From the NCBI GenBank assembly GCA_000002445.1, contig CH464491.1, forward strand, positions 3,712,001 to 3,776,000: 64,000 bases of DNA. The letters run 5' to 3'. The notes beneath the pieces are model-generated. The model did no database searches and was not told the origin of the DNA. It was given only the letters and a program-made list of their open reading frames with translations. The number at the start of each line of letters is the position of its first letter. Position 1 is the first letter of the stretch. This DNA is from Trypanosoma brucei. Taxonomy: Eukaryota. The position numbers and the translations under genes are program-made. Below are positions 6,083 through 46,500 of the stretch, in pieces.

Positions 6083-6135
6083 AAAAAGAATAATAATAAT
6101 AATAACAACAACAACTATTATTATTACTGTTAAAA
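6083..6135. repeat. Compound trinucleotide repeat (AAT)5(AAC)4 followed by (TTA)n, with inverted-repeat character
   Basis: Direct reading: aataataataataataacaacaacaactattattattactgtt. (AAT)n and (TTA)n are reverse complements on the same strand, so a hairpin or cruciform could form. Confidence 0.7.
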
Positions 6136-11801: not shown

Positions 11802-11860
11802 TATATATATATATATATATATATAATTTATATAATATATATAATATATTTATATATTTT
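11802..11860. repeat. (AT)n / (TATAA)-type dinucleotide microsatellite
   Basis: Direct reading: gtatatatatatatatatatatataatttatataatatatataatatatttatatatt. Confidence 0.85.
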
Positions 11861-12702: not shown

Positions 12703-12708
12703 CATATA

Positions 12709-12739
<31 letters not shown>

Positions 12740-12740
12740 T
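12703..12740. repeat. (AT)n microsatellite flanked by (CA) units
   Basis: Direct reading: cacatatatatatatatatatatatacatatatatatatt. Confidence 0.85.
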
Positions 12741-15700: not shown

Positions 15701-15993
15701 AAATTTGATCCTCATATCACCCGTTTCTATTCTCATTGTTATTGTTATCATTTTGAATGTTTTAAATTTGCGTGCTGCATTATTATTATTATTATTATTT
15801 GAATCGCAGCGAGTGAGTAATTCATTGAACTTAATCGAGGTATTTTAGCAAGGAAGGAAGGGGGAAAAGCAAAAAAAAAAACAAAAGAAGAAAACTACAT
15901 AAATTAACCGACCTACTGGAGATCGCAAAAAGGGACTTCACTTTGTTTTGTTTTCACTCTCCAGAAAGCAAAACATAACCAAAGTGGTGGTTT

Positions 15994-16013
15994 AATATTT
16001 TTTTTCTTTCAAG
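15994..16013 (+). promoter_or_regulatory. Polypyrimidine tract plus AG, the putative trans-splice acceptor for the downstream UEV/CUE gene
   Basis: taatattttttttctttcAAGg lies ~115 nt upstream of the first ATG (16130). This matches the kinetoplastid polyY-AG signal architecture. Confidence 0.5.
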
Positions 16014-16129
16014 GATATACACAAAAATAAGCCAAATTAGTGGAGGCGCTACAGTTAAGTTTTAGGGCCCAGTCTATACATATATATTTCTCTCTAGGTA
16101 CAGTTTCTCCTTCTGTTTCTTCTGAGAAA

Positions 16130-17494
16130 ATGAATGATAGGGAGTTGCGGGCTTACACAAAACTCGATGTCCTCAAGAGGCACTATAGCGCACTAGCGGC
16201 GGAAGCACTGCACGACTACATCAACGACTTTATGCCATACACAGAAAATTTCAAAAACATTTCATGTCACTTCTGCAACAATGACAAACAACTTCTTTTA
16301 ACTTTGGATTGTCCGATCTATGTGATGCCGCCAGGTGTAAATGCCGCTGCTGCACCCCGTCAGGGTTTGGTGCATCCGCTGCGTGTTGAAGTTGTTTTTT
16401 TGGCCAACTTCCCAAACTCTGCTCCCACCGTTAAACTCCTTCCGAATACGTTTCGTTGCGGCAATTTAACCGAATGGCGTGTGCGTCCGGCTTCTAGCAT
16501 CATGGATGAAGATGGTGCCATTCACTTGGAGAAGTTGGCGCTTCTTGAACAGGCTGTGGTCCCGTATTCTCTTTTAGAAATACTTGTGGCACTTACTGAG
16601 CAGTTCGAAGCGGAATTCCCGCTAACTCCATCAGAGAGGGAACCCATCGGACAAAACCCCCCCATAGCCACTGCCACGCCACCCGTTTCCTCGATTGTAA
16701 ATTCTGTTGTTAATAGTACTTTTTGTCCCACAGACGGTTCGGCTCCACCCAACGTTATGCCTGTGCCTGAAATGCCGACAAGTGACCCATCTGTTGTTGG
16801 CCCACATAACCAACTTATTCAAGGGGCGTGCGATGCAGTCATGATTCATTTGCTCTTCAAGGCAGATGCTTATTTGGATACGCGAGCTAAGGCTTTGGAA
16901 TACCTAAAAACGTTAGACAAGGCATCAAATGAACTGCGCAGTGCACTTGCAACACTTGAGAAGAATAAGGAAGAGCTACTGAAGTTCTCTCCCGCCCCCG
17001 GCAGAGTTGAAGACCTCACCACCACCCTGGAGCAAGTCGCGAATTCTATGGAAACACACTCCGATTGTATCGTACCAGCGGATGAGGTGCACGCTCGGGC
17101 GTTAGAGTTGTTAGGGGACATTCACTCCCTGGACGATGTGTTGGAGTTGTTGGAGCGGTCTCTACGGCATGGGCAAATAACGTGCGAGGAATACGTTCGT
17201 CGTGTTTCTGATGTTGGTCGGCAGCAATTTGAAGCTCGGTTTCTCTTTGACCGTTTAACGGCTGCGGTCCGTGGTACCCAAAGATGTGGTACGCCGCTTC
17301 CTTCTGATGTCGTGCCGACGGCAAATGCACGAGAAGAGCCATCCGCAACTCAACCGACAACACTGGCCGAGGTGATTAAACAGCTGCATGAGGAGTTTCC
17401 TGATGTTGAATTGGATGTTGTTAAAGCGGTGCTGGAGGTGACGGAGATGAACCTTTCTGAGACCCGCGTACAGCTTCATGCCATTATGTCGTAG
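16130..17494 (+). CDS. Protein with an N-terminal UEV (inactive E2 variant)-like domain, a central coiled coil and a C-terminal CUE-like ubiquitin-binding helix bundle; candidate ESCRT-I Vps23/TSG101-like
   Basis: The ORF track starts at GTG 16040; the first in-frame ATG is 16130 (MNDRELRAY...). The N-terminus has a UBC/UEV-like pattern: HPLRVEVVFLANFPNSAPTVKLLPNTFRCG ... DGAIHLEKLALLEQ. The C-terminus EVIKQLHEEFPDVELDVVKAVLEVTEMNLSETRVQL aligns with the CUE consensus (xxIKxLxxMFPxxxxxVIxxVLExxxxNxxxxxxxLL). Confidence 0.8.
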   Translation: MNDRELRAYTKLDVLKRHYSALAAEALHDYINDFMPYTENFKNISCHFCNNDKQLLLTLDCPIYVMPPGVNAAAAPRQGLVHPLRVEVVFLANFPNSAPTVKLLPNTFRCGNLTEWRVRPASSIMDEDGAIHLEKLALLEQAVVPYSLLEILVALTEQFEAEFPLTPSEREPIGQNPPIATATPPVSSIVNSVVNSTFCPTDGSAPPNVMPVPEMPTSDPSVVGPHNQLIQGACDAVMIHLLFKADAYLDTRAKALEYLKTLDKASNELRSALATLEKNKEELLKFSPAPGRVEDLTTTLEQVANSMETHSDCIVPADEVHARALELLGDIHSLDDVLELLERSLRHGQITCEEYVRRVSDVGRQQFEARFLFDRLTAAVRGTQRCGTPLPSDVVPTANAREEPSATQPTTLAEVIKQLHEEFPDVELDVVKAVLEVTEMNLSETRVQLHAIMS

Positions 17495-18178: not shown

Positions 18179-18196
18179 TGTGTGTGTGTGTGTGTG
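18179..18196 (+). repeat. (TG)9 microsatellite upstream of the WD40 gene; source of a spurious GTG-initiated N-terminal extension in the ORF track
   Basis: Direct reading: aatgtgtgtgtgtgtgtgtgcaag. ORF 18182 starts at GTG inside this repeat. Confidence 0.9.
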
Positions 18197-18466
18197 CAAG
18201 GGGGCGGGACCATATGTTATGCACGAAAAAGTTGTACCGTAATGTACGAATGCGTGGTGAAACCTAAAGGCACTCTTCTCCCTTTTCTGCCCATATGTAG
18301 GCTTATTCGTACCGTTGTCTTTGTTCTCTTTGCAACCATTTGTTACATTGGAAATGTTAGGCAAGATAAGGTGCCACTTCTTCGACATCTCCTGAGTTAC
18401 CACTTCCCTTTGTCGCCGTCAGGTAGCTCCCGTTCCGCAGTACCGAACATATTTTACAAAGCAAAC

Positions 18467-21427
18467 ATGACTAGCTTAAATGGCAGCAAGAGTTCTGCAT
18501 ATGGAACGTTGAAGTTCACTAACCGGATGGGTACGCCATTGCCATCACCTTCAAAGAAGTTGAAGTCGGCACCGGCAGCTACCGGCGTCCCACCGCCACC
18601 CTTCACTTTAGCGGTTGGGAATCGGACCTCCTCCACCAGCCCGAGGACACCTGTTGCCATGGGTGAAACTTCTGTGGTTTCTTCACCCAATGGTTACAAC
18701 CCTCCTTTGCCCACAATTTCAGATGCAGCTTCGGGGCAGGGGACTGGAAACGGTACTACGAACATAGACGGTGTCGCATATAACCACAGTCGTCGCCGTA
18801 GGCAGCGTGGGCCAACCGGAAAAGCGAGTACGGATAACAATAACACCGCGGAGGTTGCCGCATCATCTCCGGGTGCTCAACCATCTTGTAATTCGTACGA
18901 TTCCGGTGGCACATATAATTCATTCTGGTCCCCCAGAGCAACAAATGCGGATGTTTTAGGATGGCCAAAAGTTGAGGATCACCAAGTTCCTACGGATGAT
19001 GTGCAATTAGGCTCTCACACACGTAGATATGGTGGTTCCCTCGGAGCTGTACCGCGACTATCTGTAAAGGTGCTGGGGATGAGCCCACTTCACGCCAATC
19101 TGCTTGTTGCTCGTCCGTTCGTACGCGTATGGCTGCTAGACGGCCACACCGGGAGAAATCTGATCAAAACAGAGTTTCTACGTTCGTCTTTTGGGGTAAC
19201 GCACCCCGTTGATCTCCGGTGTCGTCACACAAGAGCGCCGTGGTGGGGTGCCGAGCTCCTTTTCTGTGTGCATTCATCTCTCATTGAGGAACCATCAGTA
19301 GATCCACTCTTACTGATGGAGGTGCTTGAAAGTGGTGAGGAGGCGATTAACGGTGTTCCCGTTCCGCGAGACGGTTTCTACCCCGTGTGTTGGGGATTCC
19401 TGAAGCTGAGGAGTGCGAATGGAAGGATGAACATGGGGAAACGTTTGAATATTCAAATGTTTCCTTTCCCCGGGCGTGTATCTGTTCTCACAAGGCTAAT
19501 GCAACAGTTGCCATCCTTCTTGTTTCGCTCCCGAAGGGGGGTGGACGGGGATGATATTGGGCCTTTACACAGCCAAGAAACCACAGAATACGAGATGTGT
19601 TGTGCCTCCGATGCGGTTAAAGGCAACGGTAACACGTCCACGCCACCGGCAATCTTTTACACGTACAAGCGCGCCCAAAACCGTCAGGTTCCATACGCTG
19701 CAACTCTACTCATTTCGCTGAGATGGGAAGATGACATTTCATATGTCCCCAGTGAAGCGCATATATTACCGAGTGAGGAATGTTTTCTCGATCAAATGCC
19801 GGTTTCGCAGGACCACAAACCCAGGAGCACCGCAAGAAGTGCATACTCCGGACGTCCGTGGTCCACGGAAGACAAGAGTGCCAGATATGGTATAAATACC
19901 ACAGCTTTAGGGAGATCTTACTTGCGCAATGAGGATGAGCGAGTGGTGCCTCCACCATTGGTTGTACAGAGCACTCAGATTGTCGGAAAAGTTACTTGTA
20001 TAACATTTGCCGGCGTTGAATCTCTGATGGCACTCGGTGTAACGGACGGAGCTGATTACTTGATTCAGCTTCGCCATGCGCTGGTGTGTGGCGCTCCGAT
20101 TTTTGGTGTTTGCCGTGGGCATGCTGGTCACATACATAGTGTTACATTTCGAAGGGATAGCCAACTGTTGCTATCTAGTTCATCAGACAAAACTGTGAGG
20201 GTGTGGCGGTTGGATAATTTTCCTTCCGCCACAATTTCCTACCAGGTGATGATCGTTCCGTGCCTATGTACCCTGCCACATAGTTTCCCGCTGTATGATA
20301 GCGTGTTCTTTGAAAGCGTTATTGTAACTTGCGGTTTTGATCCGCGGCTCTTTGTATGGAACTACAAAGAATTCGACAACCAAGAAGTGGAAACCACGAT
20401 TGAAAGGGAGCAGTACAACCACAGCGGTGCGGCATGGCAACCCGGAAGAGTTGGCAGCGTACCATTGAGTAGTACAAACTTCAACATCACCACGGCGGGG
20501 TGTGGTGTGGGGCAGGTTGTGTATGAAACAACTGGCGATGATGGAGTAGTCGTTCGTGCGCTTTCCGCTTCGGATCGTGGACGTCTCTGGTCTGTCGATA
20601 CTTTAGGGAATGTGTTGATTTGGCATTCTGAGGATGGTGTCACGCTTGATGGCAGTACCCAATGGAGGATAAGGACGCGCTACCGTTTCAAATGCCCAGG
20701 GGCTACTAAAGTAGAAGTGCATGGAGATAGGGCTTTAGTGACGTGTGAGAAACATCCTGTGGCGTATTTGATTGATGTCATGAGCCACCAACTGCTACAC
20801 ACCATTTATATGCATCAGAAACCGTACATCCCTGTCGTTACACTCCTCCCTGATGGCGAGGCATTTGTGGCGTGTACCTGTGATGGGCGGTTGCTGTATT
20901 GGGAGTGCTTCTCCGGTACGCTATGTACTCCACTTAGTGGTTATGGTGCCATTCGCACTCACGGGAGTCCTCGCCGCATTGTGTGGTCGCCCAACCAACA
21001 GCTAGCAGCCGTTCTCGGTTCGTGGAACCACAGCAGTTTGGCAAGGAGGGAATCACATAGTTCGTTTATGGCACTTACAATCGTTGGTGCTCCAAGGGAA
21101 GAGGGAAATGTTTTACTGCGGACAGATGCTCATTCTGAAGCTAAGTTTCGCTCTCGCCTTATCAGTGGTGAGGCGAGTCCTCCTCTAACGAGAGTCAGCT
21201 CAGCAGGAACGTCGGAATCACCCCTATGGGCCACCTCTGGCCAACCCCAGTCCTCGCGACCCGTCGGGGCGATGCCTTCCTCCATTTTTGAGAGTAAAAG
21301 TTCTCGCATAGACAACATCGTTGCTGTATGGAAGCAACTTACATCCCGTCACCGATGTCGTAGGAGTGAGGAACCTCCGTTTACTGCCAACAGTGGTATC
21401 GACAAGTATGTTGCAGAAAATGTGTAA
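18467..21427 (+). CDS. Large WD40-repeat protein
   Basis: Start trimmed to ATG 18467 (MTSLNGSK...), downstream of polyY tract 18260-18340 plus AG. The repeat HIHSVTFRRDSQLLLSSSSDKTVRVWRL fits the WD40 consensus, and a GRLWSVDTLGNVLIWH-type repeat occurs further on. The N-terminal ~150 aa are S/T/P/G-rich. Confidence 0.75.
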   Translation: MTSLNGSKSSAYGTLKFTNRMGTPLPSPSKKLKSAPAATGVPPPPFTLAVGNRTSSTSPRTPVAMGETSVVSSPNGYNPPLPTISDAASGQGTGNGTTNIDGVAYNHSRRRRQRGPTGKASTDNNNTAEVAASSPGAQPSCNSYDSGGTYNSFWSPRATNADVLGWPKVEDHQVPTDDVQLGSHTRRYGGSLGAVPRLSVKVLGMSPLHANLLVARPFVRVWLLDGHTGRNLIKTEFLRSSFGVTHPVDLRCRHTRAPWWGAELLFCVHSSLIEEPSVDPLLLMEVLESGEEAINGVPVPRDGFYPVCWGFLKLRSANGRMNMGKRLNIQMFPFPGRVSVLTRLMQQLPSFLFRSRRGVDGDDIGPLHSQETTEYEMCCASDAVKGNGNTSTPPAIFYTYKRAQNRQVPYAATLLISLRWEDDISYVPSEAHILPSEECFLDQMPVSQDHKPRSTARSAYSGRPWSTEDKSARYGINTTALGRSYLRNEDERVVPPPLVVQSTQIVGKVTCITFAGVESLMALGVTDGADYLIQLRHALVCGAPIFGVCRGHAGHIHSVTFRRDSQLLLSSSSDKTVRVWRLDNFPSATISYQVMIVPCLCTLPHSFPLYDSVFFESVIVTCGFDPRLFVWNYKEFDNQEVETTIEREQYNHSGAAWQPGRVGSVPLSSTNFNITTAGCGVGQVVYETTGDDGVVVRALSASDRGRLWSVDTLGNVLIWHSEDGVTLDGSTQWRIRTRYRFKCPGATKVEVHGDRALVTCEKHPVAYLIDVMSHQLLHTIYMHQKPYIPVVTLLPDGEAFVACTCDGRLLYWECFSGTLCTPLSGYGAIRTHGSPRRIVWSPNQQLAAVLGSWNHSSLARRESHSSFMALTIVGAPREEGNVLLRTDAHSEAKFRSRLISGEASPPLTRVSSAGTSESPLWATSGQPQSSRPVGAMPSSIFESKSSRIDNIVAVWKQLTSRHRCRRSEEPPFTANSGIDKYVAENV

Positions 21428-24427: not shown

Positions 24428-25513
24428 ATGTATCAAGGACGTAGTCAACAGCCGTTGTGGACCCCACCACCAAATTTTTCCCAGGTGGAAACCGGTATCT
24501 ATCGCAGTGCATACCCCACACTTGCGAGCGTCCCATTCCTCCACCATATTGGAATAAAAACGATTGTATTGCTTTCCATAGAGTTGTTACCAGTTCCTGT
24601 GGTAAGGGCAATCTCGGAGGGGGATGTGGTTGCAGGCACCACGTCCGTGTCGGATGACGTCCACGCATGGAAGGATAACGAGTGCATAAAGTGGCCCATA
24701 CGCATAGTTTCCACGGCTGATTTGTCAGAGTGGATGAATGAATACGTTTGTGCAAAAGACGATTTTGCTGTCTCAAGTGTTCAACGCGCTTTAGACTTTG
24801 CCTTGCAGCCAGACTTTCAACCTGTTCTTTTCACATGCCCGACGGGTGAGCTGCAGACCAGCGTTATTGTCGGATGTATGCGACGGCACCAGGGCTGGTC
24901 TCTAGCTGCCGTGCTTGCGGAGTGTGAGTTGTTTGTCAACGTTACGGGAGGCGTGCGCCAAAGTGTGATGAATTTTATAGAACAGTGGGACCCCGACGAA
25001 CATCCGGTTCGTGAAGAAGATATCGCGAAGAGAAAGCGTGAGTTGCTGTTGAGAGACCCTTCACTTTCTTATAGTGTCAAACGACACCGGAGGACGGTGA
25101 CCCACTCTGCGAGCGATCCTGATTCTGAATACGATGACCCTTTGGCTATGGGTACCTCACGACTTGGGCAAAAGGGTACCGCCGGAAACTCAGCGGGTAT
25201 GGGATTGTCACTATCGCCATATAAGAGTTCAGGATTCGATAGGTCTACATTGAGTTCGACGAGGGTAGGTGGTGACGAGTTGGGTTTGTCGCACTCGTCT
25301 CATGTCGTTATCAAACTCGCGTCCTGGTATACGGCTGCCATGAAGAGGCGTGCGGCTGCCGCTGAAGCAATCGTTGCGGCGAGGGCGAAGGTTCGTGCGC
25401 CCAGTGATCCCCTTCCAGAACCACACGAAAGGTATTTCGGTGTGCTGAATCCTCCGGCTTTGGATGAGCGCTCAACGTTTACAAAGAAGTCAATTGTCCA
25501 GGACCTTGACTAG
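24428..25513 (+). CDS. Tyrosine-phosphatase-fold protein of the PFA-DSP / Siw14-like (Y_phosphatase2) family with a degenerate catalytic loop; probable pseudophosphatase. Low-complexity S/G/A-rich C-terminal half
   Basis: ATG at 24428. NFSQVETGIYRSAYP...FLHHIGIKTIVLLS matches the Siw14 N-terminal signature (NFSxVxxxIYRSxxP...FL..L.LK.I..L). The P-loop position reads LFTCPTGELQTSVIVGCMRRHQGWSL, whereas Siw14 has [25 protein letters not shown]. Cys is kept, but the CX5R Arg and the basic residues are lost. Confidence 0.8.
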   Translation: MYQGRSQQPLWTPPPNFSQVETGIYRSAYPTLASVPFLHHIGIKTIVLLSIELLPVPVVRAISEGDVVAGTTSVSDDVHAWKDNECIKWPIRIVSTADLSEWMNEYVCAKDDFAVSSVQRALDFALQPDFQPVLFTCPTGELQTSVIVGCMRRHQGWSLAAVLAECELFVNVTGGVRQSVMNFIEQWDPDEHPVREEDIAKRKRELLLRDPSLSYSVKRHRRTVTHSASDPDSEYDDPLAMGTSRLGQKGTAGNSAGMGLSLSPYKSSGFDRSTLSSTRVGGDELGLSHSSHVVIKLASWYTAAMKRRAAAAEAIVAARAKVRAPSDPLPEPHERYFGVLNPPALDERSTFTKKSIVQDLD

Positions 25514-29681: not shown

Positions 29682-30749
29682 GAAAGGCACTTGGCACAGT
29701 GCTTTTTTTTCCCCCTTTCTTTCTCCCTTCCATTACATTGGAAAGGTAAGAGGTCTGTAGTAACGTCCCTGTCAGCTTTTTACAGAGCCACCGGCGGTCC
29801 CCATTCACAAAGTGCAGGCTTTATGGATGTGTGTGTGGACGGTCATTTAGTGTTGTTTCCGCTTTCGACCCTTTGTTGTTACTTTTTAAAATATTAAATG
29901 CTTAGCAGGTGGAGACGGCGCTAATTGTGAAGCCGCACCGATAGATTTTTTTTTTTTACTTTCTCACATCACTTGTGTCAGCACATGCCACTCGTTGATT
30001 TCTCTGAGCGGGAAGGTGAATTATGGGATATTCGGGGTTGGGGCACTTCGTTCATTAAAGCTGAATTCTGCATAGGTGAGAGTATACAACTGGTTGCATG
30101 TGCGAACCTCAATGACTTGTTGTGACTTGCTTGCGGTGAAAGCGCGAGAAGAAGTGGAAAACAAAAACAAAACGTTTTGTTGTGTTTGTGACTGGTGCTG
30201 TTCAAAAGCGTGGTGTGCGCGGTTGACTGGCACCTGGATGTTTCGTGCAGTCACAACCCCTGTGATCCGCTTTGAATGGTCGGTCGTGTGTTCACCCTTT
30301 GAGAAAAATGTTGGAACATAGTCTCCTTTTTTTTTTTACGTTAGTTTTTTGACCCTTAGAGTTTGCGACCTAGAATTCCCGATGACTGTGCCGCTGCTCC
30401 CGATACATTTAAGTAAGTAGATACATGCATGTTTATTTTTGTTTCTATTTGTTTATTTGTGACAAATCTGCATGGTAAACGCTTCCAATACCTTCAAAGT
30501 TTTTATGTTCGGTATTCCCCTTTTCTCCCCCGCCTTTCCTCTGGTGATTAATTGGAACGACACCGATCGTCATTTGGCAACTCCAAAATCAAGTTCTTTT
30601 TTTTCTTTTGTTTATTATACATATTGACATAAGTCTAATCTGGGAAGGAATACGCTAGTGCAAAAACAGCAGTGTCGGAAAGGAGTGTTTCGGTTCTGCG
30701 TGAGGAGTCTACTGGGGTTATTCTAGCTTAGAGAGAAGTGAAGGAAGAG

Positions 30750-31430
30750 ATGGTTCTTGTGCTTGTTGTTGGTGACCTCCATGTTCCGCAGCGTGCAGCC
30801 TCCATTCCGAAGGTATTCACTCAGATGTTTACACCTGGCCGCATACAGTTAGTACTAATAACCGGAAACGTAGGTTGTCGAGAGATGTATGACTACTTTC
30901 GCAGCATTGTACCGGATGTGTACTGCGCCAAGGGTGAGTTTGACTCGTGTTGGTGGCCTAACGTTAACAGTAAGCATGCTAGCGATACAGATAAGCTTTT
31001 GCAAGACACTCACGTGATAAATGTGGAATCACTGCGTATAGGCCTTATCCACGGCCACCAGGCGATACCGTGCGGTGACAGAGACATGCTTGCCATGCTG
31101 CAGCGCAAGTTAGATGTGGATGTATTAGTGTCTGGTGCAACGCACAACAACAAGGTATTTGAGTTTGGCGGGCACCTCTTTGTAAACCCTGGTTCAATCA
31201 CCGGTGCTTTTACAACAAGGAGGTTGGATGTTGTCCCAACGTTCGTGCTTTTGGATATTCAAGACAAGAAGGTAACATCATTTTCTTATGCCTACGCCCC
31301 CGGTGAGGGAGTGGGTGGAGAAGACTTTAAGATCAAACGGAAGACGTGGATCAAAGACGAGGAAGAGGAGGGAGAGGAGACACAAAAACCCCCTGCTTCC
31401 GCTGTTCCTCCTCCTCCACCTCCTGAATGA
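30750..31430 (+). CDS. VPS29: Retromer subunit Vps29 (calcineurin-like phosphoesterase fold) with a short acidic/proline C-terminal extension
   Basis: The ORF track start 30738 is GTG; the first ATG is 30750. MVLVLVVGDLHVPQR...LVLITGNVGC...YCAKGEFD closely matches the Vps29 N-terminus (MLVLVLGDLHIPHR...ILCTGNLC...VRGDFD). The C-terminus reads EEEEGEETQKPPASAVPPPPPPE. Confidence 0.9.
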   Translation: MVLVLVVGDLHVPQRAASIPKVFTQMFTPGRIQLVLITGNVGCREMYDYFRSIVPDVYCAKGEFDSCWWPNVNSKHASDTDKLLQDTHVINVESLRIGLIHGHQAIPCGDRDMLAMLQRKLDVDVLVSGATHNNKVFEFGGHLFVNPGSITGAFTTRRLDVVPTFVLLDIQDKKVTSFSYAYAPGEGVGGEDFKIKRKTWIKDEEEEGEETQKPPASAVPPPPPPE

Positions 31431-32145: not shown

Positions 32146-33954
32146 ATGACGGATGTGACGTACAGTTACTCACGACTCCGCAAGGAGTTTGGGCGGATGC
32201 CGGAGTTCCAGGCCAACGAAGGAGAAATTTTGGTGGACATCGCCCCCAACCGCAGTTTAAAAAACCACTATACCCAACTAGATCCCTGTGAGACGGTGAT
32301 CCAAAATGTACCATCGCTCTCCGAATCGGGAACAAATACAGAGCGCATTCAACTCAGACACCACGCGCAGTCGCACAGCGAAGGTGGATGGCCGCATGGT
32401 GTTGATCCCACTGAGTTTGAGGAAAAAATGAAATACTGCAGGAAGGTAGAGCGCGAGGAGAGTTATCTCTCTTCCTGCCGCCGCCTCATTCAGCAGTGCA
32501 CAGATAAGTACGTCAAGCAGAATAACGCCATAGACATTTATGGCACATACTTTCCTGAAGGTCCCCCAGTCGAAGATGAGTCTTTAGGGACAGCATCCGC
32601 AAAGATCACCTCTGTGTTCAAGGACCCCAGTGCGGAGAAGCGAACCGCGGCAGCGATTACGTGGCAGAACGATGGTCGGAGGTTTGCAGTGGCGTACTGC
32701 CGTTTGCGTTTCCAAAGCAATACCTCTACAATGAACACAAATTCTTTCGTCTGGGACGCACTGAATCCAAATGCACCGGTGGAAACTCTGGTTACTTCAT
32801 CACCGTTGTGTTGTATTGAGTACTACACAAAAGACCCCCATATCATTGCCGGCGGAAGCTGGAACGGAGTTGTGCAGTACTGGGACACACGGCAACCGAC
32901 GAGGCCTGCCTCCCGTTCCCTCATCGAGACAAGCCACAAGGACCCCGTGTGGGCCGTCAAATGGTTGCAAAGTAAGTCGGGTGAGTTGCTTTCAGTGTCC
33001 ACTGATGGTGACGTCCACGTATGGGACTGCCGTATTCCTGACAAGCCCGTAGAACTTCAGCGGCTCCCGGAAGACTCCGTGAGGTTGCAACCAAAGAACA
33101 ATGAAGGTGGCTCAAAAGGTGTTCTGGGAGGTCTGTGCTTGGACTATGACCCACAGGTGGGTGGTCCGTCGAAGTATATGATTGGAACCGAACAGGGAAC
33201 AATCCTTTCGTGTAACAGGAAGGGAAAAACACAAGCAGATAAACTGGGGCCGAACACATTCAACGGACATCATGGACCTGTGTATTCGGTGCAACGAAAT
33301 CCGTTCTTCTCCAAGTACTTCCTTTCGGTTGGTGATTGGACGGCGCGGATGTGGTTTGAGGACTTTAAATTTACGCCCTTGTTTAGTACCTTTTACCACA
33401 AATCTTACCTCACTAGCGGGGCATGGCATCCCGCACGACCGGGAGTTTTCTTCACAACGCGTATGGATGGTTACCTTGACCTATGGGACTTGATGTTGCG
33501 GCAAACAACGCCTGCGTTGAGCGTCCAGGTTTCTGATTACGCACTGCACACCGCTAAACCCACATCAGAGGGCAAACACATTGCTGTCGGTGGCATTGAC
33601 GGTAATGTAACACTGTTGGAGTTGTCGCCCTCCCTTTACACATGCATGAGTGACGAAAAGTTCCAAATTGGACAACTGTTGGAAAACCAGAGCATCCGTG
33701 ACAAGAACTTAGACCGTGCAGCCAAGGAAAAGAGGACCGCAGCCAGGCAACGTCAGCGTCGCAGCACAGTGCTAGGCGAAAGCCATAAGAGCTCTGATGA
33801 AGTCACAGAGCAGCTTGAAAAAGTTACCGAGGAGTACCAAACCACCGTAAAAAGTGAGAAGGAGCGCGATGACGAGCAACGCACGGAACTGGAGTGCGCC
33901 CGGATGAAATTACTGGAGGACATCAGTGGGGGAATAGATGTTGATTCGGATTGA
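32146..33954 (+). CDS. DNAI2: Axonemal outer-arm dynein intermediate chain 2 (IC69/DNAI2-type WD-repeat protein)
   Basis: The N-terminus MTDVTYSYSRLRKEFGR...EGGWPHGVDPTEFEE...KQNNAIDIYGTYF parallels DNAI2 MEIVYVYVKKRSEFGK...EGGWPKDVNPLELEQ...KQNNAIDIYEEYF. WD repeats follow, and the C-terminus is coiled-coil and acidic. Confidence 0.9.
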   Translation: MTDVTYSYSRLRKEFGRMPEFQANEGEILVDIAPNRSLKNHYTQLDPCETVIQNVPSLSESGTNTERIQLRHHAQSHSEGGWPHGVDPTEFEEKMKYCRKVEREESYLSSCRRLIQQCTDKYVKQNNAIDIYGTYFPEGPPVEDESLGTASAKITSVFKDPSAEKRTAAAITWQNDGRRFAVAYCRLRFQSNTSTMNTNSFVWDALNPNAPVETLVTSSPLCCIEYYTKDPHIIAGGSWNGVVQYWDTRQPTRPASRSLIETSHKDPVWAVKWLQSKSGELLSVSTDGDVHVWDCRIPDKPVELQRLPEDSVRLQPKNNEGGSKGVLGGLCLDYDPQVGGPSKYMIGTEQGTILSCNRKGKTQADKLGPNTFNGHHGPVYSVQRNPFFSKYFLSVGDWTARMWFEDFKFTPLFSTFYHKSYLTSGAWHPARPGVFFTTRMDGYLDLWDLMLRQTTPALSVQVSDYALHTAKPTSEGKHIAVGGIDGNVTLLELSPSLYTCMSDEKFQIGQLLENQSIRDKNLDRAAKEKRTAARQRQRRSTVLGESHKSSDEVTEQLEKVTEEYQTTVKSEKERDDEQRTELECARMKLLEDISGGIDVDSD

Positions 33955-37120: not shown

Positions 37121-40100
37121 ATGGAGCATATTCTCAGCCGCCTTATGATGGATGCCGAAGGTGGTGGCTTGCAACGCCAGGCTATGAAGGACGTCATCAC
37201 CGCCAGAGAGAATTTGGCAAGCAACGATGAGGCCCGTGTAACAACAGGTTTGCTTGAGCTTTGTGATTTGCTCAACATGGCAACACCTATAACTATAGGA
37301 TCTATCCGCCCGAATGTGTTTGTTCCTCTTGTGGTGAACTGCATGAAGAAGGATAACATCGACCTTGTTATCCTCGCGGCACGGGCACTTACGTATATGG
37401 TAGACGCTATATCTTCTACGGTATTTGTTCTAGTCTCGGAGGGAGGAATCGACGTACTGCTTCAACATTTTCAAGAGGTGAAGGATATCGAGCTCTCTGA
37501 ACAGTGTTTAACATGTGTGGAGAAGATAACACAGAACTCTGTCTGTGCCGCTACGGTGCTGCAGAGTATGGGTGTGCCAGCTCTTTTGATGTACGTGGAT
37601 TTCTTTAATGCAGCTTCCCAGCGAAAAGCATGGACGAGCGTTGCAGCGATGTGCAGACGCGTTAACGAGTCGAATTTTGGTTGCGTAGAATGTTCACTTC
37701 AAGATATTAGTGCCCGAATTGATCATGATGATGCCAAAATATCAGAGAAAGCCATCACTTGCTTGTATCGTATCATATCGGGGGTTGGTAGTAACCCGGA
37801 ACTTGTGGCACGTGCATTTGGTGACAGTTGTAATCCACTTATCTCTGTCCTTAGCAGACAGGATTTGTCAGAGACAACTTTCACAACGGCACTATCGCTC
37901 ATTGCCTGTGCCATTGATTGCAGCACGGAAGCAGCTCGCCGAACTCTGGAATCTGGGATAGTGGAGTACATGTTTACACTGATCGCCAGTTCCTCCGAAC
38001 AGCAGCAGCGCCAAGATTTGGCCGGGTTCGCGGGTCGTACGGACGGGGTGTCGCGCGCCTCCGCTGCCAGGGAACCGTCAGCCCAACGGGAATCAGTGGA
38101 GACTGTCCCTCAACGAGATAGGCGACTTTCTGTTGAACAGACCAAAGCACTGTGTCTGGCTCTTACCGCTCTGCTGCCGAAGCTTAACAAGGGTTATCTT
38201 GTCCACGGTGACGCCCTTAACAAACTTATCGCAGAAGGACATGGTGAATCCCACCGACACGCCGGTGCTTCATCCTCGGAGGCAGATGAGGGTATGGGAG
38301 GTGATGATGATGAGGACGGGGACGGGGACATGGATGATGATGATGATGAGGAGGAGGAGGAGGAGTGTACTCACGAGGAAATTCTCTCACGGGTATCAGA
38401 ACGGGGTATTCTACTTGAAAATAACGAGAAGTACCGCACATGCCGCCTCAGGCACATGTGTGACGGTTGCGGTAAGTCGTGTATACCCACCAGCTGGTTT
38501 CGCTGTAATAAGTGCAGGGATTACGATTTGTGTGGGCGGTGCCTTCTTATGAACTGGGATAGCCACAGCCCAGACGGAGAGACCCATTCCTTCTGCGACA
38601 TGCTTGTCTTTTTCCCAAAGGTGAGTGATTCAGTAACTCCTGAAGAGGGCAAAGAGTCGAACAACAGTGACTTGACTGCCGAGCGCGAGAGGCTTTATGA
38701 AAGCAACCCACACCTTCTTGCCCTCATCCTTGGCGGTATCCCAACAGTTGTGGCACTGTTCAATGAATCTGAGGCACATCTCGTTCGGAATCATTGCTTG
38801 GCCTTTATTGACCGTGCTGTTGTTCTCGCGACGCCTGAACAATTGGCGGGGATCAAAGGACTCTCGGAGGCTGCTCTGTGCGAGATGATCGTGACGGCGA
38901 TGGTGGATAGCAGCCTCATCCTTAATGTACAGGTCATGTACCTCTGTCGTATGCTGCTGGAGAAGCTTCCCAAAGTGTACTTGCCTTGTTTTGTCCATGA
39001 GGGCGTCACGAATTCTCTAGTGAAGATACAGGAGCAAAATAAGTCGTTCGTGCATTGTAGTGAAGAGCCGACACCCGTTAAAGAACCCCCTTCCTCTGAG
39101 CGCTTCAACTCAGTTTCCGGATGGCGCGAACTGCTAGCAACGGAGGCGGAGGAAATGCTAGGTATGTTCACTTCCCTCAGTGACGACACAAGGATCCTTC
39201 GGTTAAAGGAGGTTGACCGGCTTTTGCGGGGGGGCAAGCTAAAGGAGGCATTTGACTCTCTCCGCGTTGCCCTCCTTGACGAAACTACCGCATTCGAACT
39301 GTCAGCGACTGATGTATTGCACAGTTTAGTGGAGGCTTTGAAGTCTGTGGATGATGTCAAGGCCATAGTGGCACTTCTCAAAACGTTGGCAAAACAGGAA
39401 CCAAACACCACCTCGACTCTGACACGATTTGTTCGGCTTCTTCAAACTGCGCTTTCACACCTTGATCAGTTCCAGTTACCCAATTTTGGCGCTGTGAACA
39501 CCATACAAACACAGATACCCCTTCGGCTCGTCCCACACGTAGCAGGTCACGCACCGAAACCGAAGGCATCCACTCCTCCAGCAAAAGGCAACGCCTCGAA
39601 ACGTGTGGCTTCCGGTTCCACTGCTGGTCCTCCGGTCCCCACACGGGAGGTGGTTACCAGGCGCCCCACAGGCACATCAGCGGCTCGTCCAGCCGCAGTC
39701 ACTAGCAGGAACAAGAAGGACCAATCGGCGTCACCGGCATCTACGAATACGGGTGGTGGAAAAAGTTCAGTGGAGAACCGAGAGGTTAGAGTTAGCGTAG
39801 AACCATTGACAAATCTGGAGGCACTAATGGGATTTGTAGGCTCAAACGTACTTTCCGGGGGTGGGGAATTTATTGGTAGCCCCGTCACTGGTGGTGGCCG
39901 TCGGCGCAACGATGACGACGAGGTGGAAGAGGTGTTGCCCGAGTTAGCCAACGGCGTGGACCCTGAGGGATTACCTAAAAAGAAAAAACCCGTGCAAGAG
40001 AAGTCGTGTAGGCCTGTTTACATGCGTTGCGGGAAATATGTGTTGCCGCCTTCATTGACGATTCTTCAGCTCCTACAGCGCTACCACACTCCATCACAGT

Positions 40101-41950
40101 CTTCTTCCAGAAAACGGAAGGCGCACAGCAAAGGTGCTAGCGCCTCACTGCGCCTTCTTGCGTTGCTAGAGGGCATGCAAACTAATGTGGGAGATATGAT
40201 TACATTACATTACAGTGTAGACCCCTTTGGACCTGAGTACGTCCATGTACCTGCGCTGATCGACGTACCTCTCGGAACACCTGCTCACCCGGTAGAAATT
40301 AAACTACCGTCTGATGATATCACACCGCCCGGGGCGTTTGAAGTGATGCGGGCGCTGCATAATGAGTACCCTTTTAGTAGTCAGTTTCTAACTGTTGCTC
40401 AGAAGGACATCCTTACGCTACTGGGTATTTTACACGCGGCCCTCCGCAACTGGTCGGCACTCATATCTTCAACAGCGGAAGCGACTACATCGGGGGGTGT
40501 GAGCGATGAAGCGTCAGCTCCGTCAACTTCGCTAGGCGAGTTTATTCACGGGAAACTCAATAATAAGGCCATGCGACACTGTTCGAACCTTCTTCTCGCT
40601 GGCCAGCACATGACAACATGGGCGGTCAATTTGGCTCTCGATTGCAACTTCCTATTCTCTTCGATGACGCGTAAGTATCTCTTTGATGTGGGGTTCTGTG
40701 GTTCCATCCGATCCCTTGTCCAAATGCAAGAAAACATGGAGAAATATGGTATGCGTGATACGTTAAATGCCGACCATCAGTTTGTTCGCTCATACCGACT
40801 TCAACGGGAAAAGAAACGTGTGTGGAGGGACAAAGCCTTGGCTTGCGCCATGCATATAATGGGAAAGGAACGTATTAGCGGTTCAGTGGTGCTTGAATTC
40901 GAGTACTACAATGAAAATGGGAGCGGAAGTGGACCAACAATGGAATTCTACACGCTGGTGTCAGATGAGCTACGGGAGACCAAATTACGTTTGTGGCGGC
41001 GGACGGATGAAACACCCGATGACAAGTACTACAGACCGCACGTCGGAGTATATCCGCGTCCTATTCCTCCCTCTTCCCCGGAGCTTGATGACATGGAGCG
41101 GTATTTCTCCCTGCTTGGACGGCTGATCGCCCGTGCACTTCTCGATAAGCGCATCCTCTCCATTCCACTGTCGCCTGTGTTGCTCAAAATGCTGAGGGGC
41201 GATCCGTGTGGGGTGCACGACTTGGCCGATATCAGTGAGTCGCTCGGTGCTTCTGTTTTGGCAATCGCCAGAGCCGCACGCAGGGGAGATGGTGCCGTGC
41301 AGATGCCAAATTCCACGGTGATGTGTTCGGTGGAAGATTTGGGTTTAGATTTCACCCTCCCTGGGGACGAGTTCGTTGAGTTAACCGAGGGTGGCGCATC
41401 CATACCAGTGACTAAGGTGAACGCGATGGAGTACTGTGACGCTGTCACAGAGTTTGTACTACGCCGGGGTGTGGAACGCTTTGTACACGCCTTACGCACT
41501 GGGTTCCACGACTATGTGCCACTTTATGCGCTCCGTATGCTTAGCATAGGTGAGTTGTTCGAGGTGCTGAACGGTCACCCAGCCCGTGTTACCGTCGAAG
41601 AGCTGGACGCCAACTGTCAGGCCGATCACGGCTATACAATGGGGTGCCGTCACGTGCGGCAACTGTTTGAGATCATAGCCTCTCTCACTGAAAAGGAGCA
41701 GAGCGCTTTTTTCCACTTCCTCACCGGCTCCGCGCACCTTCCAGCGGGTGGCCTCGCCAGCTTACGGCCAAAGTTCACCATTGTGCGGAAAGCCTCATCA
41801 GACCCTAACGTGCGTGAGCAGGATCAACTACCGTCGGCTATGACATGTCAGAATTACCTGAAACTTCCCGCGTACGATACCAAGCAGCAGATGGAGGAGA
41901 AACTGAAAATTGCCATCAACGAGGGTTGTGGTGAATTTCTTCTCACTTAA
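37121..41950 (+). CDS. Giant HECT-domain E3 ubiquitin ligase of the UFD4/TRIP12/UPL3 type with N-terminal armadillo-like repeats, an acidic D/E tract and a ZZ-type zinc finger
   Basis: 1609 aa. The C-terminus ...LPSAMTCQNYLKLPAYDTKQQMEEKLKIAINEGCGEFLLT matches the TRIP12/UFD4 HECT C-lobe (LPSVMTCVNYLKLPDY...) including the catalytic Cys. The ZZ finger reads CDGCGKSCIPTSWFRCNKCRDYDLCGRCL...H.H. The acidic tract reads DDDEDGDGDMDDDDDEEEEEE. Confidence 0.9.
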   Translation: MEHILSRLMMDAEGGGLQRQAMKDVITARENLASNDEARVTTGLLELCDLLNMATPITIGSIRPNVFVPLVVNCMKKDNIDLVILAARALTYMVDAISSTVFVLVSEGGIDVLLQHFQEVKDIELSEQCLTCVEKITQNSVCAATVLQSMGVPALLMYVDFFNAASQRKAWTSVAAMCRRVNESNFGCVECSLQDISARIDHDDAKISEKAITCLYRIISGVGSNPELVARAFGDSCNPLISVLSRQDLSETTFTTALSLIACAIDCSTEAARRTLESGIVEYMFTLIASSSEQQQRQDLAGFAGRTDGVSRASAAREPSAQRESVETVPQRDRRLSVEQTKALCLALTALLPKLNKGYLVHGDALNKLIAEGHGESHRHAGASSSEADEGMGGDDDEDGDGDMDDDDDEEEEEECTHEEILSRVSERGILLENNEKYRTCRLRHMCDGCGKSCIPTSWFRCNKCRDYDLCGRCLLMNWDSHSPDGETHSFCDMLVFFPKVSDSVTPEEGKESNNSDLTAERERLYESNPHLLALILGGIPTVVALFNESEAHLVRNHCLAFIDRAVVLATPEQLAGIKGLSEAALCEMIVTAMVDSSLILNVQVMYLCRMLLEKLPKVYLPCFVHEGVTNSLVKIQEQNKSFVHCSEEPTPVKEPPSSERFNSVSGWRELLATEAEEMLGMFTSLSDDTRILRLKEVDRLLRGGKLKEAFDSLRVALLDETTAFELSATDVLHSLVEALKSVDDVKAIVALLKTLAKQEPNTTSTLTRFVRLLQTALSHLDQFQLPNFGAVNTIQTQIPLRLVPHVAGHAPKPKASTPPAKGNASKRVASGSTAGPPVPTREVVTRRPTGTSAARPAAVTSRNKKDQSASPASTNTGGGKSSVENREVRVSVEPLTNLEALMGFVGSNVLSGGGEFIGSPVTGGGRRRNDDDEVEEVLPELANGVDPEGLPKKKKPVQEKSCRPVYMRCGKYVLPPSLTILQLLQRYHTPSQSSSRKRKAHSKGASASLRLLALLEGMQTNVGDMITLHYSVDPFGPEYVHVPALIDVPLGTPAHPVEIKLPSDDITPPGAFEVMRALHNEYPFSSQFLTVAQKDILTLLGILHAALRNWSALISSTAEATTSGGVSDEASAPSTSLGEFIHGKLNNKAMRHCSNLLLAGQHMTTWAVNLALDCNFLFSSMTRKYLFDVGFCGSIRSLVQMQENMEKYGMRDTLNADHQFVRSYRLQREKKRVWRDKALACAMHIMGKERISGSVVLEFEYYNENGSGSGPTMEFYTLVSDELRETKLRLWRRTDETPDDKYYRPHVGVYPRPIPPSSPELDDMERYFSLLGRLIARALLDKRILSIPLSPVLLKMLRGDPCGVHDLADISESLGASVLAIARAARRGDGAVQMPNSTVMCSVEDLGLDFTLPGDEFVELTEGGASIPVTKVNAMEYCDAVTEFVLRRGVERFVHALRTGFHDYVPLYALRMLSIGELFEVLNGHPARVTVEELDANCQADHGYTMGCRHVRQLFEIIASLTEKEQSAFFHFLTGSAHLPAGGLASLRPKFTIVRKASSDPNVREQDQLPSAMTCQNYLKLPAYDTKQQMEEKLKIAINEGCGEFLLT

Positions 41951-43564: not shown

Positions 43565-46500
43565 ATGGAAGATATTCTCGACTTCAGCAAGCCCGTCGAT
43601 GTGCAGCGTTTCGACCAGGTAGTGCAATACCTCTCAACAGGCTCACCACAAGAGATCGTGAGGGCGCAGGAGGTTCTTACCGCATTCAAGGAGAGACCCG
43701 ACTCCTTTTTACGCGTAGGAGACCTTCTCACCAAATCGGTGAACCTCACGACACGTTTTTTTGCACTTCAGGTTCTGGAGGACGCGATTCTACACCGATG
43801 GAACACATTCACTGCGGAACAGTGTCAGGAAATTCGTAACTTTGTTGTTAACATGATTGTAGGTGAATGCGTGAGCTTCAATCAAATTCGTAGTAGGAGG
43901 GCTCTTCTTATGAAGATGAATAGTGCGCTTGTGTCAATAGCGAAGCGTGAGTGGCCCGTTCGTTGGCCGACCTTCATAAAGGACGTGTGCAGTAGTGCTG
44001 GGCCAGATGAACCTCTTGTAGAAAACAACCTGAACATTCTCCGCATGGTGGGCGAGGAGATATTTGAATTTAGCGAGAAAACTTTAACGACTCGATGGTT
44101 GAAACGAAAGAAGGAGGCACTGCAAAGCGACTTTCAGGCAATTCTTCAATTGTGTCTTTCGATTCTATCCACTAGTGACGAGGCGCTTCTCAAAACCAAT
44201 CTGGAGTGCCTGGAGAAATATCTTTCCTGGGTAGAACCGGCGTCCGTGTTTAACGAGGAATTACTGAAGTATCTTGCGGGACTAATCGCACGGAAGTCTG
44301 CCGTATCGCGCTGCGCGGTGCGTTGTCTTACAGTTGCGTGCTCCGTGGAGACAGATCACGGCTCAGTTGGGGACGCGCAAGCGCAGGTGATGGTTCGTGT
44401 GTTTCGCACAATCCTCGATAATATTATGAACTTACTTCCCACGAATCACTCTTCTGTTGAAGCGCGTATCGTCCAGTTTTCCAACATGGAAGGGAGTGTG
44501 GATGCAGGCTTTGTTGGCGATCTCAATCTTTTGTTGGTTGCGTTTTTGAAGCACTATACGAGAAATATTATGTACGACGATCTCTTGTTGATATCTGCCA
44601 ACCAATTGATCGTGGGAATGAGTCATATTAACGACAAGGAGCTATTCAAATCCTGTGTTGACTACTGGTGGTGGCTTGGTGAAAAGATGGTGCGGTCCGC
44701 ATCACCTACACCGCTACACCGGAAGCTGGCACTTGTACTCAGCAATGTTCGCTTTACTCTCATCAAGAAAATGGCAAGACCGGAGGAAGTCATTATTGTA
44801 GTCGAAGACGGTGAGGTGCGCAGGGTGCACATGAAGGATGTGGAGGAACTACAACTCTACAAATTAATGCGGGAGACGCTTGTTTTTTTAACATACCTCG
44901 ATCCTCAAGATATGCAGGCGATTATGACTAAAATCGTTATGAAGCTTGAAGACCTTAGCGAATGGAGTTGGCACAACTGCAACACATTATCATGGGCAGT
45001 CGGGGCGATATCTGTGGCCCTGACTGAGGAACAAGAATCTTCACTATTTGTAGTTATTGTACGTGGCCTGCTAGATCTTTGTAGCAAGCTACAAGGAAAG
45101 GAAAACCGTGCCGTTGTTGCGAGTGGTATCATGTTTGTTGTTGGGCAGTACCCCCGTTTCCTGCGTGCTCATCAGCCCTTTTTCCGCGCAGTGGTGAAGA
45201 AGGTAATTGAATTCATGTGCGACTTATTCCCTGGTGTGCAGGAAATGGCTGTGGATACTCTTTTGAAGGTGGCCTCGCAGGTACCAGATCAGTTTGTTTG
45301 TGTCAAGAACAATGGGATTTCCCTCGCTGAGGAAACGGCGAAGCGGTGGACTGAAATAACGTCTTTGTTAAAACCCCAACATATGCACACATGTTTTGTT
45401 GCAGCTGGTTGGATGGTGAAGGGAGAGAAGCCAGAGCGGCAGCCGAGTCTGTTAGGCATGTTTCTCCAAGATGCGAACGACAGTTTTAGGATTATTGTGG
45501 AGCGAGCAGCCTCTAAAGGTCCGGCCTTTGGGGAAGACTTTTCTGGTATGGGGGAGTTAATACACATTTTACGTGTCTTTAGCAGCATTGCGTCATCTTG
45601 TGGAACATCGTTTGTGAATGAGATGGGGATTATAATTTACGACCTTCAAGGACTCTATCGTACATTCTTCTCCGCCCAAACTGCCCTAGTTGCGGACCAT
45701 GGAACAGATGCCATGGAGAGGCAGGAGGCACGGTATTTAAGGCTAGCGAAGCGGGAGATCTTGCGAATTTTCGAGTGCTTTGTTGACAATACGGAAGAAT
45801 GTGACTTTGTGGCAACAAATTGCATGCCGAGTATTCTGACAACTGTTCTTGAGGACTACCGTGACTCGCTTCCCATAGTGAAGGAGGCAGGAGCCCTAGC
45901 TCTTGTGACGGCGTGTGTCAACAAGTTGGGCACGCGGTTGGCCGGGGATTGTGCTGCCATTTTGGACCACACGTTTGATACAACCATATCGATGATCTGC
46001 GCAAACGCTGAGGATTTTCCCGAGTTTCGCGTGAATCTTTTCAAACTGCTACACGCACTGAATACTCGCTGTTTTTCCAATTTCTTGAGCTACGCCTCCA
46101 CTAAGGGGGACGTTATAAACGGTATGCTGTGGGTAATCAAACATACAGATTTTGCTATAATGGAGACGGGGTTGAAGACTTTAGATGCTTTCCTTGAGAA
46201 TGTCTCCCGGTCAGAGTTACTTCAACCCTTCTACGATGCCTTTATGCAGCAAATATTTGTCGAGGTTTTGGTGTCCGCTATGGATTCGCTTCATGCCGCA
46301 GGATTCGAACTGCATTGTAGCATCCTCATCAAACTCTTCACTGTGTCTAGCATGTTTCCCGTAGATTTGCCAAAGCTCGGCCGAAACGATATTGAGAGCT
46401 TTCTTTGTGAGAACCTTTCAACCATTGCCACACTCACACCTGTCCTTATTAAGCAGTTTATTGCTGGAGCGTATGAAAAGTATGGAGACCCTGTCGAATT

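Follow-up and report, generated by a model that had tools for sequence, protein, structure and literature searches.

The gene Tb11.01.5870 of Trypanosoma brucei, located in a window of chromosome 11 (the whole 64,000-nucleotide stretch of contig CH464491.1 that was analysed), encodes a phosphatase-like protein with a degenerate active site. The product belongs to the Y_phosphatase2/PFA-DSP structural family (CC1 DSP fold). It is probably an anciently fixed and selectively maintained paralogue of Siw14/PFA-DSP that has no catalytic function and acts as a regulatory or scaffold protein of the OCA type. The elements of this reading that were directly observed are the PFA-DSP fold, the loss of the pocket, the conservation, the canonical paralogue and a motif anchored to the C-terminus that is exclusive to the subfamily. 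The coordinates of the gene, its parts and its neighbours are listed in Table 1.

The Arg-less P-loop of Tb11.01.5870 has been known since 2007, and the protein is an ordinary member of a known pseudophosphatase class. Brenchley et al. 2007 listed Tb11.01.5870 in Additional file 5 of their TriTryp phosphatome paper as a member of atypical-DSP (aDSP) group 4 with the loop FTCPTGELQT and without the catalytic Arg (PMC2175518). The group 4 orthologues Tc00.1047053511725.240 of T. cruzi and LmjF32.1010 of L. major carry the loops FTCPTGDIQT and FACPLGELQT, respectively (PMC2175518). This group 4 entry is the identical gene to the present open reading frame (ORF). The phosphatome paper (PMC2175518) offers no discussion of the C-terminal motif, of the missing GNKEPF loop or of the non-kinetoplastid relatives. 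The additions made here are modest, namely a wider loss of the pocket, a Trp-containing helix and a terminal acidic motif that is common to distant protists.

The Pfam family Y_phosphatase2 (PF03162) matches residues 13-192 with an E-value of 5.7e-24 and a score of 85 bits (gathering score, 27), which is far beyond chance. In a phmmer search of PDB sequences, residues 118-191 of the query align to Siw14 (6byf) and AtPFA-DSP1 (7mok and 1xri) with E-values of about 1e-13. The AlphaFold2 (AF2) model, built with 27 orthologues, shows a predicted local distance difference test (pLDDT) score of 85-93 at residues 11-60 and of about 81-89 across most of residues 91-170, with a dip to 65 at residues 101-110. 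The top 24 Foldseek matches to the AF2 domain are all AtPFA-DSP1 or Siw14 (E-values of about 1e-10), and the best of them, 7moj and 6byf, gave TM-scores (template modelling scores) of 0.79-0.89 normalised to the target. The homology to Siw14/PFA-DSP had been proposed in a sequence-only reading of this DNA and is borne out by the profile search, the PDB alignments and the structural comparison. The motifs quoted there from the N-terminal half (NFSQVETGIYRSAYP, FLHHIGIKTIVLL and GCMRRHQGWSL) are also present.

The family core motifs outside the P-loop (PPxNFxxV-G-YRSxxP, HPxL, GCxR-xQxW and FIE) are all found in the Tb11.01.5870 product, and they are kept both in canonical proteins and in the subfamily that includes the query, referred to here as tail-bearing because of its acidic C-terminal motif. 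The domain is interrupted by an insert at residues 67-84, which lies between the N-terminal beta-alpha units and strand 92-95. Every canonical sequence (100%) is gapped across the insert columns, and the mean identity of the aligned orthologues to the query falls to 0.12 at residues 61-80.

The segment of the query that contains the P-loop, LFTCPTGELQTSVIVGCMRRHQGWSL, aligns residue for residue with the P-loop segment of Siw14 and AtPFA-DSP1. Both alignments confirm the register in which TCPTGELQTS had been placed on HCxxGKHRTG. The nucleophile position is occupied by Cys137, which is aligned with the catalytic Cys, and Gly140 and Thr144 are kept as well. At the remaining key positions the query has Gln143 where the enzymes have Arg, Glu141 where they have Lys, Leu142 where they have His, and Thr136 where a His precedes the Cys. 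The canonical P-loop residues His136, Lys139, Lys141, His142 and Arg143 are all absent from the query, and the HCxxGxxR(S/T) signature with an invariant Arg that marks a competent Siw14-type inositol pyrophosphate (PP-InsP) phosphatase is missing. The retention of Cys together with the loss of the CX5R Arg and of the basic P-loop residues had been read correctly from the sequence. A canonical CX5R elsewhere in the protein, which the same reading had named as evidence against itself, was also considered. The sole CX5R string, C86-R92, is confined to T. brucei and T. congolense and contains no Gly. This string lies ahead of strand 92-95, on the margin of the insert where model confidence is low, and has no strand-loop-helix P-loop context. 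It was dismissed as a chance string.

An alignment of 27 trypanosomatid-type orthologues was constructed from Trypanosoma, Leishmania, Leptomonas, Novymonas and further relatives. Pro138, Gly140, Gln143 and Thr144 are invariant in this alignment and Cys137 is conserved in at least 90% of the sequences, the loop following the pattern C-P-[TL]-G-[ED]-x-Q-T-[SN] throughout. The Arg-less state is fixed in all orthologues examined, a check that the sequence-only reading had called for. The mean identity to the query is 0.69-0.75 near the loop, whereas it is 0.12-0.30 in the insert and linker. The invariance of the loop and this regional contrast in identity indicate that the degenerate state arose long ago and is maintained by purifying selection. 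If the gene were a phosphatase relic in decay and without function, the loss of catalytic residues and the long low-complexity linkers would be explained, but the ORF is unbroken in all trypanosomatids sampled. Moreover, the loop and the C-terminal motif are near-invariant between Trypanosoma and Leishmania and recognisable in diplonemid, heterolobosean and rhizarian proteins. The conservation of the degenerate loop and of the motif effectively refutes the relic explanation, the probability of which is negligible.

The loss of catalytic residues extends to the wider pocket. A total of 42 members of the tail-bearing subfamily were compared with 61 canonical HCxxGKxR proteins. The core common to both groups comprises PP-F-V-G-YRS-P, Glu52, HP-L, Cys137, Gly140, Thr144, the GC-R-Q-W helix, Glu165, Arg177 and FIE. 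The tail-bearing subfamily lacks the P-loop residues His, Lys, Lys, His and Arg, and it also lacks a second loop, G-N-K-E-P-F, which is found in 77-95% of canonical proteins (G 0.90, N 0.77, K 0.93, E 0.85, P 0.95 and F 0.85). At the aligned position the tail-bearing proteins have a Trp (0.81) and no other consensus. This residue, Trp102 in the query, is specific to the subfamily and invariant among the 27 orthologues. Further losses in the subfamily include the conserved Lys aligned to residue 175 as well as Asn16, Tyr54 and Phe61. The polybasic substrate pocket made up of His136, Lys139, Lys141, His142, the GNKEPF loop and the Lys at 175 is gone. Since every basic side chain has been lost and a Glu has been gained, the pocket is poorly suited to an inositol pyrophosphate.

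These losses bear directly on substrate trapping, in which the old active site would bind inositol pyrophosphates or phosphoproteins and shield them from the active enzyme. This role had been suggested in the sequence-only reading. General precedents for pseudophosphatases are given in reviews on trypanosomatids and PP-InsPs, and the P-loop backbone and the fold are retained in the query. However, all basic P-loop side chains are lost, one of them to Glu, and the GNKEPF loop and the Lys at 175 have disappeared. The formerly strongly basic pocket has become neutral or acidic, a poor environment for a ligand with more than 10 negative charges, and little is left to hold such a polyanion. Substrate trapping is highly improbable.

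In several relatives of the query (P0013, P0049, P0085 and P0107) the nucleophile position carries Asp in place of Cys, often with a Cys one position upstream. The loops of Asp-bearing relatives include FCDPTGELQTS, MDPSGESEVS, CDTSGVQRVG and CDASGMHQIG. As judged from these sequences, the recurrent exchange of Cys for Asp suggests that a negative charge is conserved rather than a nucleophile.

The retained Cys might still serve an enzyme with changed chemistry. In such an enzyme the thiolate of Cys137, held in a P-loop whose backbone is intact (Gly140 and Thr144) and with Gln143 in place of Arg, would attack a substrate that is less anionic or contains no phosphate, or would serve in slow phosphatase or thiol-transfer reactions. 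The Cys is found in 95% of the tail-bearing subfamily and is invariant in a 24-sequence cross-phylum alignment, Gly140 and Thr144 are retained in 98% and 86% of the subfamily, respectively, and Gln143 is invariant in trypanosomatids. Loss of the CX5R Arg in protein tyrosine phosphatases (PTPs) lowers kcat by orders of magnitude, which counts against this explanation. The wider subfamily shows a mixture of residues at the Arg position (Q, E, L, T, S or V) and hence has no one replacement chemistry in common, and the exchange of Cys for Asp in P0013, P0049 and P0107 argues for a charge or structural role and not for a nucleophile. Recombinant Oca1 of yeast, in which the CX5R is kept, shows no detectable activity (PMC13573052), and the query has in addition lost the second pocket loop. 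Changed chemistry is distinctly unlikely.

A redox sensor has also been considered. A low-pKa Cys137, possibly paired with the nearby Cys150 of the GC-x-R helix, would be reversibly oxidised and switch the interactions of the protein, and oxidative stress would be tied to PP-InsP or TOR-type signalling. About 95% of the tail-bearing subfamily keep Cys137, and the same holds for Cys150. The active-site Cys of active family members is reversibly oxidised, lipid hydroperoxide sensitivity is seen in the yeast siw14, oca1 and oca2 mutants, and the yeast genes bear the name 'oxidant-induced cell-cycle arrest'. Cys150, however, is equally conserved in canonical enzymes and so is not specific to the subfamily. 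A drop in the thiol pKa would be unlikely without the Arg and the basic surroundings, and members with Asp in place of Cys are incompatible with a redox switch. The redox sensor is thus an unlikely explanation. The retained Cys/Gly/Thr scaffold of the P-loop is most simply structural, because Asp replaces Cys in a few members, or possibly redox-sensing.

The distribution of the Arg-less, tail-bearing subfamily was determined by a full HMMER scan with the orthologue profile, including the tail, against 1.84 billion representative proteins. The scan gave 2,028 relatives at E-values up to 0.001. The P-loop and C-terminus were extracted from the best 150 of the 2,028 relatives, and 174 proteins entered the comparison. 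The acidic terminal motif was found in none of the 76 CX5R proteins (a count unaffected by the use of a profile that held the tail) and in at least 56 of about 98 Arg-less proteins, a share that is inflated by the same profile. Tail-bearing members include proteins of Willaertia magna (Heterolobosea), Namystynia karyoxenos (Diplonemea), and Papus ankaliazontas and Paulinella micropora (Rhizaria).

Circularity was checked with domain-only subfamily hidden Markov models (HMMs) in which the P-loop was masked. The query scored 139 bits with the model of non-kinetoplastid tail-bearing proteins, 120 bits with that of other Arg-less proteins, 94 bits with the canonical model, 81 bits with the Oca1-like model and 51 bits with the Oca6 model. 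In a neighbour-joining (NJ) tree, all 42 tail-bearing sequences were placed on the query's side of a split together with one Arg-containing sequence and no Oca6. The grouping of the query with Arg-less proteins appears to be independent of the loop and tail, as the HMM scores favour it and the NJ topology agrees weakly.

The C-terminal part of the protein consists of a linker, a helix and a terminal motif. The sequence-only reading had described the last 150 or so residues as a disordered tail. This description holds for the linker at residues 214-290 but fails for the predicted helix at residues 299-320, which carries the invariant Trp300, and for the conserved last 30 or so residues. The linker is highly variable in length among orthologues and almost missing in compact homologues of 233-254 amino acids (aa). 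The equivalent helix in one such homologue, the linker-less 254-aa protein P0030, has a pLDDT of about 90, and the Trp300 helix probably extends the domain fold as an integral part of it.

The terminal motif reads P-x-P-H-x-R-Y-x-G-V-x-N-P-P-A-L-D-x-R-S-T-F-T-K-x-S-I-V, followed by an acidic stretch of four to five residues and the free carboxylate. The final 30 or so residues (PHERYFGVLNPPALDERSTFTKKSIVQDLD) are among the best-conserved parts of the protein, and Asn341, Pro342, Pro343, Phe351 and Lys353 are invariant. Counted from the free C-terminus, the positions of the motif stay in register. Among 64 sequences, Ser is found at position -8 in 47, Val at -6 in 45, and Asp at -3, -2 and -1 in 54, 55 and 54, respectively. 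The pLDDT of the motif is 51-69 in the query and 54-68 in P0030, and these moderate to low values fit a flexible linear motif. A Pfam scan of the C-terminal region at E-values up to 1 gave no family match. Comparison of the tail with the consensus patterns of the SUMO-interacting motif (SIM), the LC3-interacting region (LIR), RVxF and 14-3-3 ligands showed that none of these fits.

The general ending of the motif is F-T-K-E-S-[ILV]-V-E-E-D-D-D-COOH. Salivarian trypanosomes deviate from the near-universal VEEDDD. The ending is SIVQDLD in T. brucei (the last 7 codons, positions 25490-25510 of the window) and SIVEDVD in T. congolense and T. vivax (the orthologues P0002 and P0006 were compared). 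The salivarian endings EDVD and QDLD are similar to the EEVD of Hsp70 and Hsp90. The EEVD-COOH of these chaperones is bound by TPR carboxylate clamps.

Several paralogues of Tb11.01.5870 are present in trypanosomatid genomes. The canonical paralogue in T. brucei is Tb09.v1.0350, with the loop IHCNKGKHRT (PMC2175518), which has been named TbPTP3 and has an RNA interference (RNAi) phenotype. A further T. brucei paralogue, Tb11.03.0500, has the loop LTCSMGRYRT (PMC2175518). Tb09.211.0210 of T. brucei and LmjF04.0840 of L. major (aDSP group 5, IHCLDGRHTT) are likewise Arg-less SIW14-like paralogues in the same genomes, but their loop differs from that of the query and the His before the Cys is kept. 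The trypanosome set mirrors the yeast arrangement, in which one canonical enzyme is accompanied by degenerate paralogues. The most distant match of a search with yeast Oca6, P0247, has the loop IHCLDGRGITSL, which is similar to the group 5 loop. By this loop similarity, the group 5 paralogue and not Tb11.01.5870 may be related to Oca6.

A non-catalytic protein of this kind would not be able to hydrolyse PP-InsPs or phosphoproteins at a useful rate and probably would not even bind them. By analogy with the yeast Oca proteins, the Tb11.01.5870 product is instead predicted to act as a regulatory or scaffolding subunit, most plausibly for the active Siw14-type enzyme (TbPTP3) and/or for other degenerate paralogues. 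Contacts with partners could be made through the subfamily-specific surface formed by Trp102 and the Trp300 helix, with the terminal acidic motif (S-I/V-V-E-E-D-D-D-COOH) as the putative main docking element. Of the functions offered in the sequence-only reading, the pseudophosphatase assignment stands as far as sequence can tell and the regulatory scaffold is the better supported, whereas substrate trapping is not favoured. The conserved C-terminal motif, the likeliest mediator of a scaffold role, had been dismissed there as disordered tail.

Several points weigh against a maintained non-catalytic regulator. The retained Cys137, Gly140 and Thr144 are also compatible with residual or altered catalysis, and the number of tail-bearing proteins among Arg-less relatives is inflated as described above. 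The NJ tree has low bootstrap values, 37-43% at the 61-taxon split and 48-60% at the split that follows, and no biochemical, interaction, localisation or phenotype data for Tb11.01.5870 were found in the searchable literature.

A more far-reaching extension of the regulatory reading can be offered tentatively and is on balance doubtful. The motif may mark a previously undescribed subunit of ancient origin that regulates inositol pyrophosphate turnover, in which the tail docks in trans and the dead domain controls the time and place of PP-InsP degradation. The polyacidic tail could be a pseudosubstrate plug for the polybasic pocket of TbPTP3, or it could be the ligand of a partner with a carboxylate clamp of the TPR type. 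The terminal motif provides a concrete and cheap handle on the function of OCA-type pseudophosphatases. Trypanosomes are genetically tractable, and their PP-InsP metabolism is linked to polyphosphate and acidocalcisome biology. To our knowledge, the PFA-DSP-like family is absent from animals, and an essential role, if true, would therefore be of interest as a parasite-specific target.

The identity of the gene was established from the ORF and its surroundings. The ORF is uninterrupted and intronless and consists of 361 codons plus a stop codon, which encode a 361-aa product. Its start Met is the same Met as in the orthologues, and the P-loop string of the product is that of the Tb11.01.5870 entry in Table S4 of the TriTryp phosphatome. 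The nearest homologues are from Trypanosoma, with 67% identity to T. congolense. The upstream neighbour is a CCT/HSP60-family gene, Tb11.01.5860, and the downstream kinase is Tb11.01.5880. Three genes along, the match of a Maf-family protein to a T. brucei crystal structure places the window on T. brucei chromosome 11, and the synteny of the Maf, CCT and kinase genes identifies the ORF as Tb11.01.5870.

The long ORFs of the window are all on one strand and all intronless, and further genes of this same-strand array were identified by Pfam within positions 16040-62411 (+). An AT-rich stretch of about 13.5 kb at positions 2500-16000, directly downstream of a 516-aa ORF, contains no ORF of 200 aa or more. 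It lies within the same-strand array and is uncommonly long for an intergenic region of T. brucei. Its GC content is 0.28-0.31, compared with about 0.47-0.50 in the gene-dense flanks, and the GC skew is strongly positive at 6-10 kb of the window. The stretch is composed of homopurine/homopyrimidine runs together with AAT and TA microsatellites. A centromere-like nature was considered for this stretch. A search of about 2.5-16 kb for tandem arrays with periods of up to 500 found none.

Table 1. Positions of Tb11.01.5870, its parts and its neighbours in the window
Feature	Position	Strand	Basis or remark
Complete ORF Tb11.01.5870, OCA-type PFA-DSP-like pseudophosphatase	24428..25513	+	ORF listing, orthologue start Met, P-loop string, synteny
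PFA-DSP/Y_phosphatase2-fold domain, residues ~9-195	24452..25012	+	Pfam, PDB matches, AF2, Foldseek
Lineage-variable, predicted-disordered insert, residues 67-84	24626..24679	+	pLDDT <50, absent in canonical enzymes
Chance CX5R string, C86-IKWPI-R92	24683..24703	+	Translation; not the P-loop
Region aligned to G-N-K-E-P-F, residues 101-110, EWMNEYVCAK, Trp102 gained	24728..24757	+	Subfamily comparison
Degenerate P-loop, T136-C-P-T-G-E-L-Q-T-S145	24833..24862	+	Aligned to canonical H-C-x-x-G-K-H-R-T-G
Poorly conserved S/A/R-rich disordered linker, residues 214-290	25067..25297	+	pLDDT <50, mean identity 0.17-0.30
Conserved amphipathic helix, residues 299-320, SWYTAAMKRRAAAAEAIVAARA	25322..25387	+	AF2 pLDDT 77-78; W300 invariant
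Conserved C-terminal linear motif, residues 330-361	25415..25510	+	Translation, orthologue alignment
516-aa ORF directly upstream of the AT-rich stretch	952-2502	+	No Pfam match at E up to 1e-5
Vps23-core (ESCRT-I-like) gene	16040..17494	+	Pfam
WD40 proteins	18182..21427 and 32146..33954	+	Pfam
Maf-family protein Tb11.01.5890, 203 aa	29070..29681	+	Full-length match to PDB 2AMH (T. brucei crystal structure), 440 bits
Metallophos_2 gene	30738..31430	+	Pfam
HECT E3 ligase with TRIP12-like N-terminus	37121..41950	+	Pfam
CRM1/exportin-1 gene	43565..46666	+	Pfam

Several known systems resemble the Tb11.01.5870 product in part. Siw14 and AtPFA-DSP1 (6byf and 7moj) are active phosphatases of the 5-beta-phosphate of PP-InsPs that have the same fold as the query, as the TM-scores given above show, and share with it the motifs PP-NF-V-G-YRS-P, HP-L, C, G, T, GC-R-Q-W and FIE. 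The query differs from both enzymes in the extra disordered insert, the extra C-terminal helix and the acidic terminal motif.

Inactive members of other DSP subfamilies provide examples of a comparable role. The inactive myotubularins (such as MTMR5, MTMR9 and MTMR13) and the STYX-type proteins have a PTP fold, have lost catalysis and regulate an active paralogue or anchor partners, and this pseudoenzyme mechanism has been invoked in two reviews. These proteins have no comparable C-terminal motif. In STYX-type proteins the Cys is lost (typically replaced by Gly or Ser) and the Arg is retained, whereas in the query the Cys is kept and the Arg is lost. The STYX proteins of the TriTryp genomes form a separate group 6 (PMC2175518).

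A further parallel is found in yeast. A 2026 review describes the 'OCA clade', sister to PFA-DSP, as predicted pseudophosphatases with the loops CCGMGRHR in Oca1, HSNKGKHR in Oca2 and HCTNGELI in Oca6, whereas the loop is deleted in Oca4 (PMC13573052). The Oca proteins associate with one another in interaction assays and overexpression of SIW14 suppresses oca mutants, but their roles 'have not been defined' (PMC13573052). A 2026 paper on the fungal pseudophosphatome agrees that the OCA proteins are pseudophosphatases (PMC13216928). Like the query, Oca1, Oca2, Oca4 and Oca6 combine a PFA-DSP-like fold with a substituted active site and exist beside one canonical Siw14-type enzyme.

Orthology to Oca6 was considered in view of the loop HCTNGELI. 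The Oca6-family sequences retrieved from the database have the loop HC[TS]NGEL[VI]TS, which shares the core C-x-x-G-E-L-x-T-S with CPTGELQTS of the query. In Oca6, however, the His before the Cys is kept, Val or Ile occupies the position of the query's Gln, and the C-terminus is LPKLKFHS[LV], unrelated to the acidic end of the query. The similarity of Oca6 to the query is also the lowest of the groups tested (at most 46 bits pairwise and 51-61 bits by HMM). Orthology was rejected on the basis of this low overall similarity and the unrelated C-termini, despite the common loop core. By sequence, Tb11.01.5870 is of the OCA type by definition, as a PFA-DSP-like protein with active-site substitutions, and is not classed as the orthologue of any particular yeast Oca protein.

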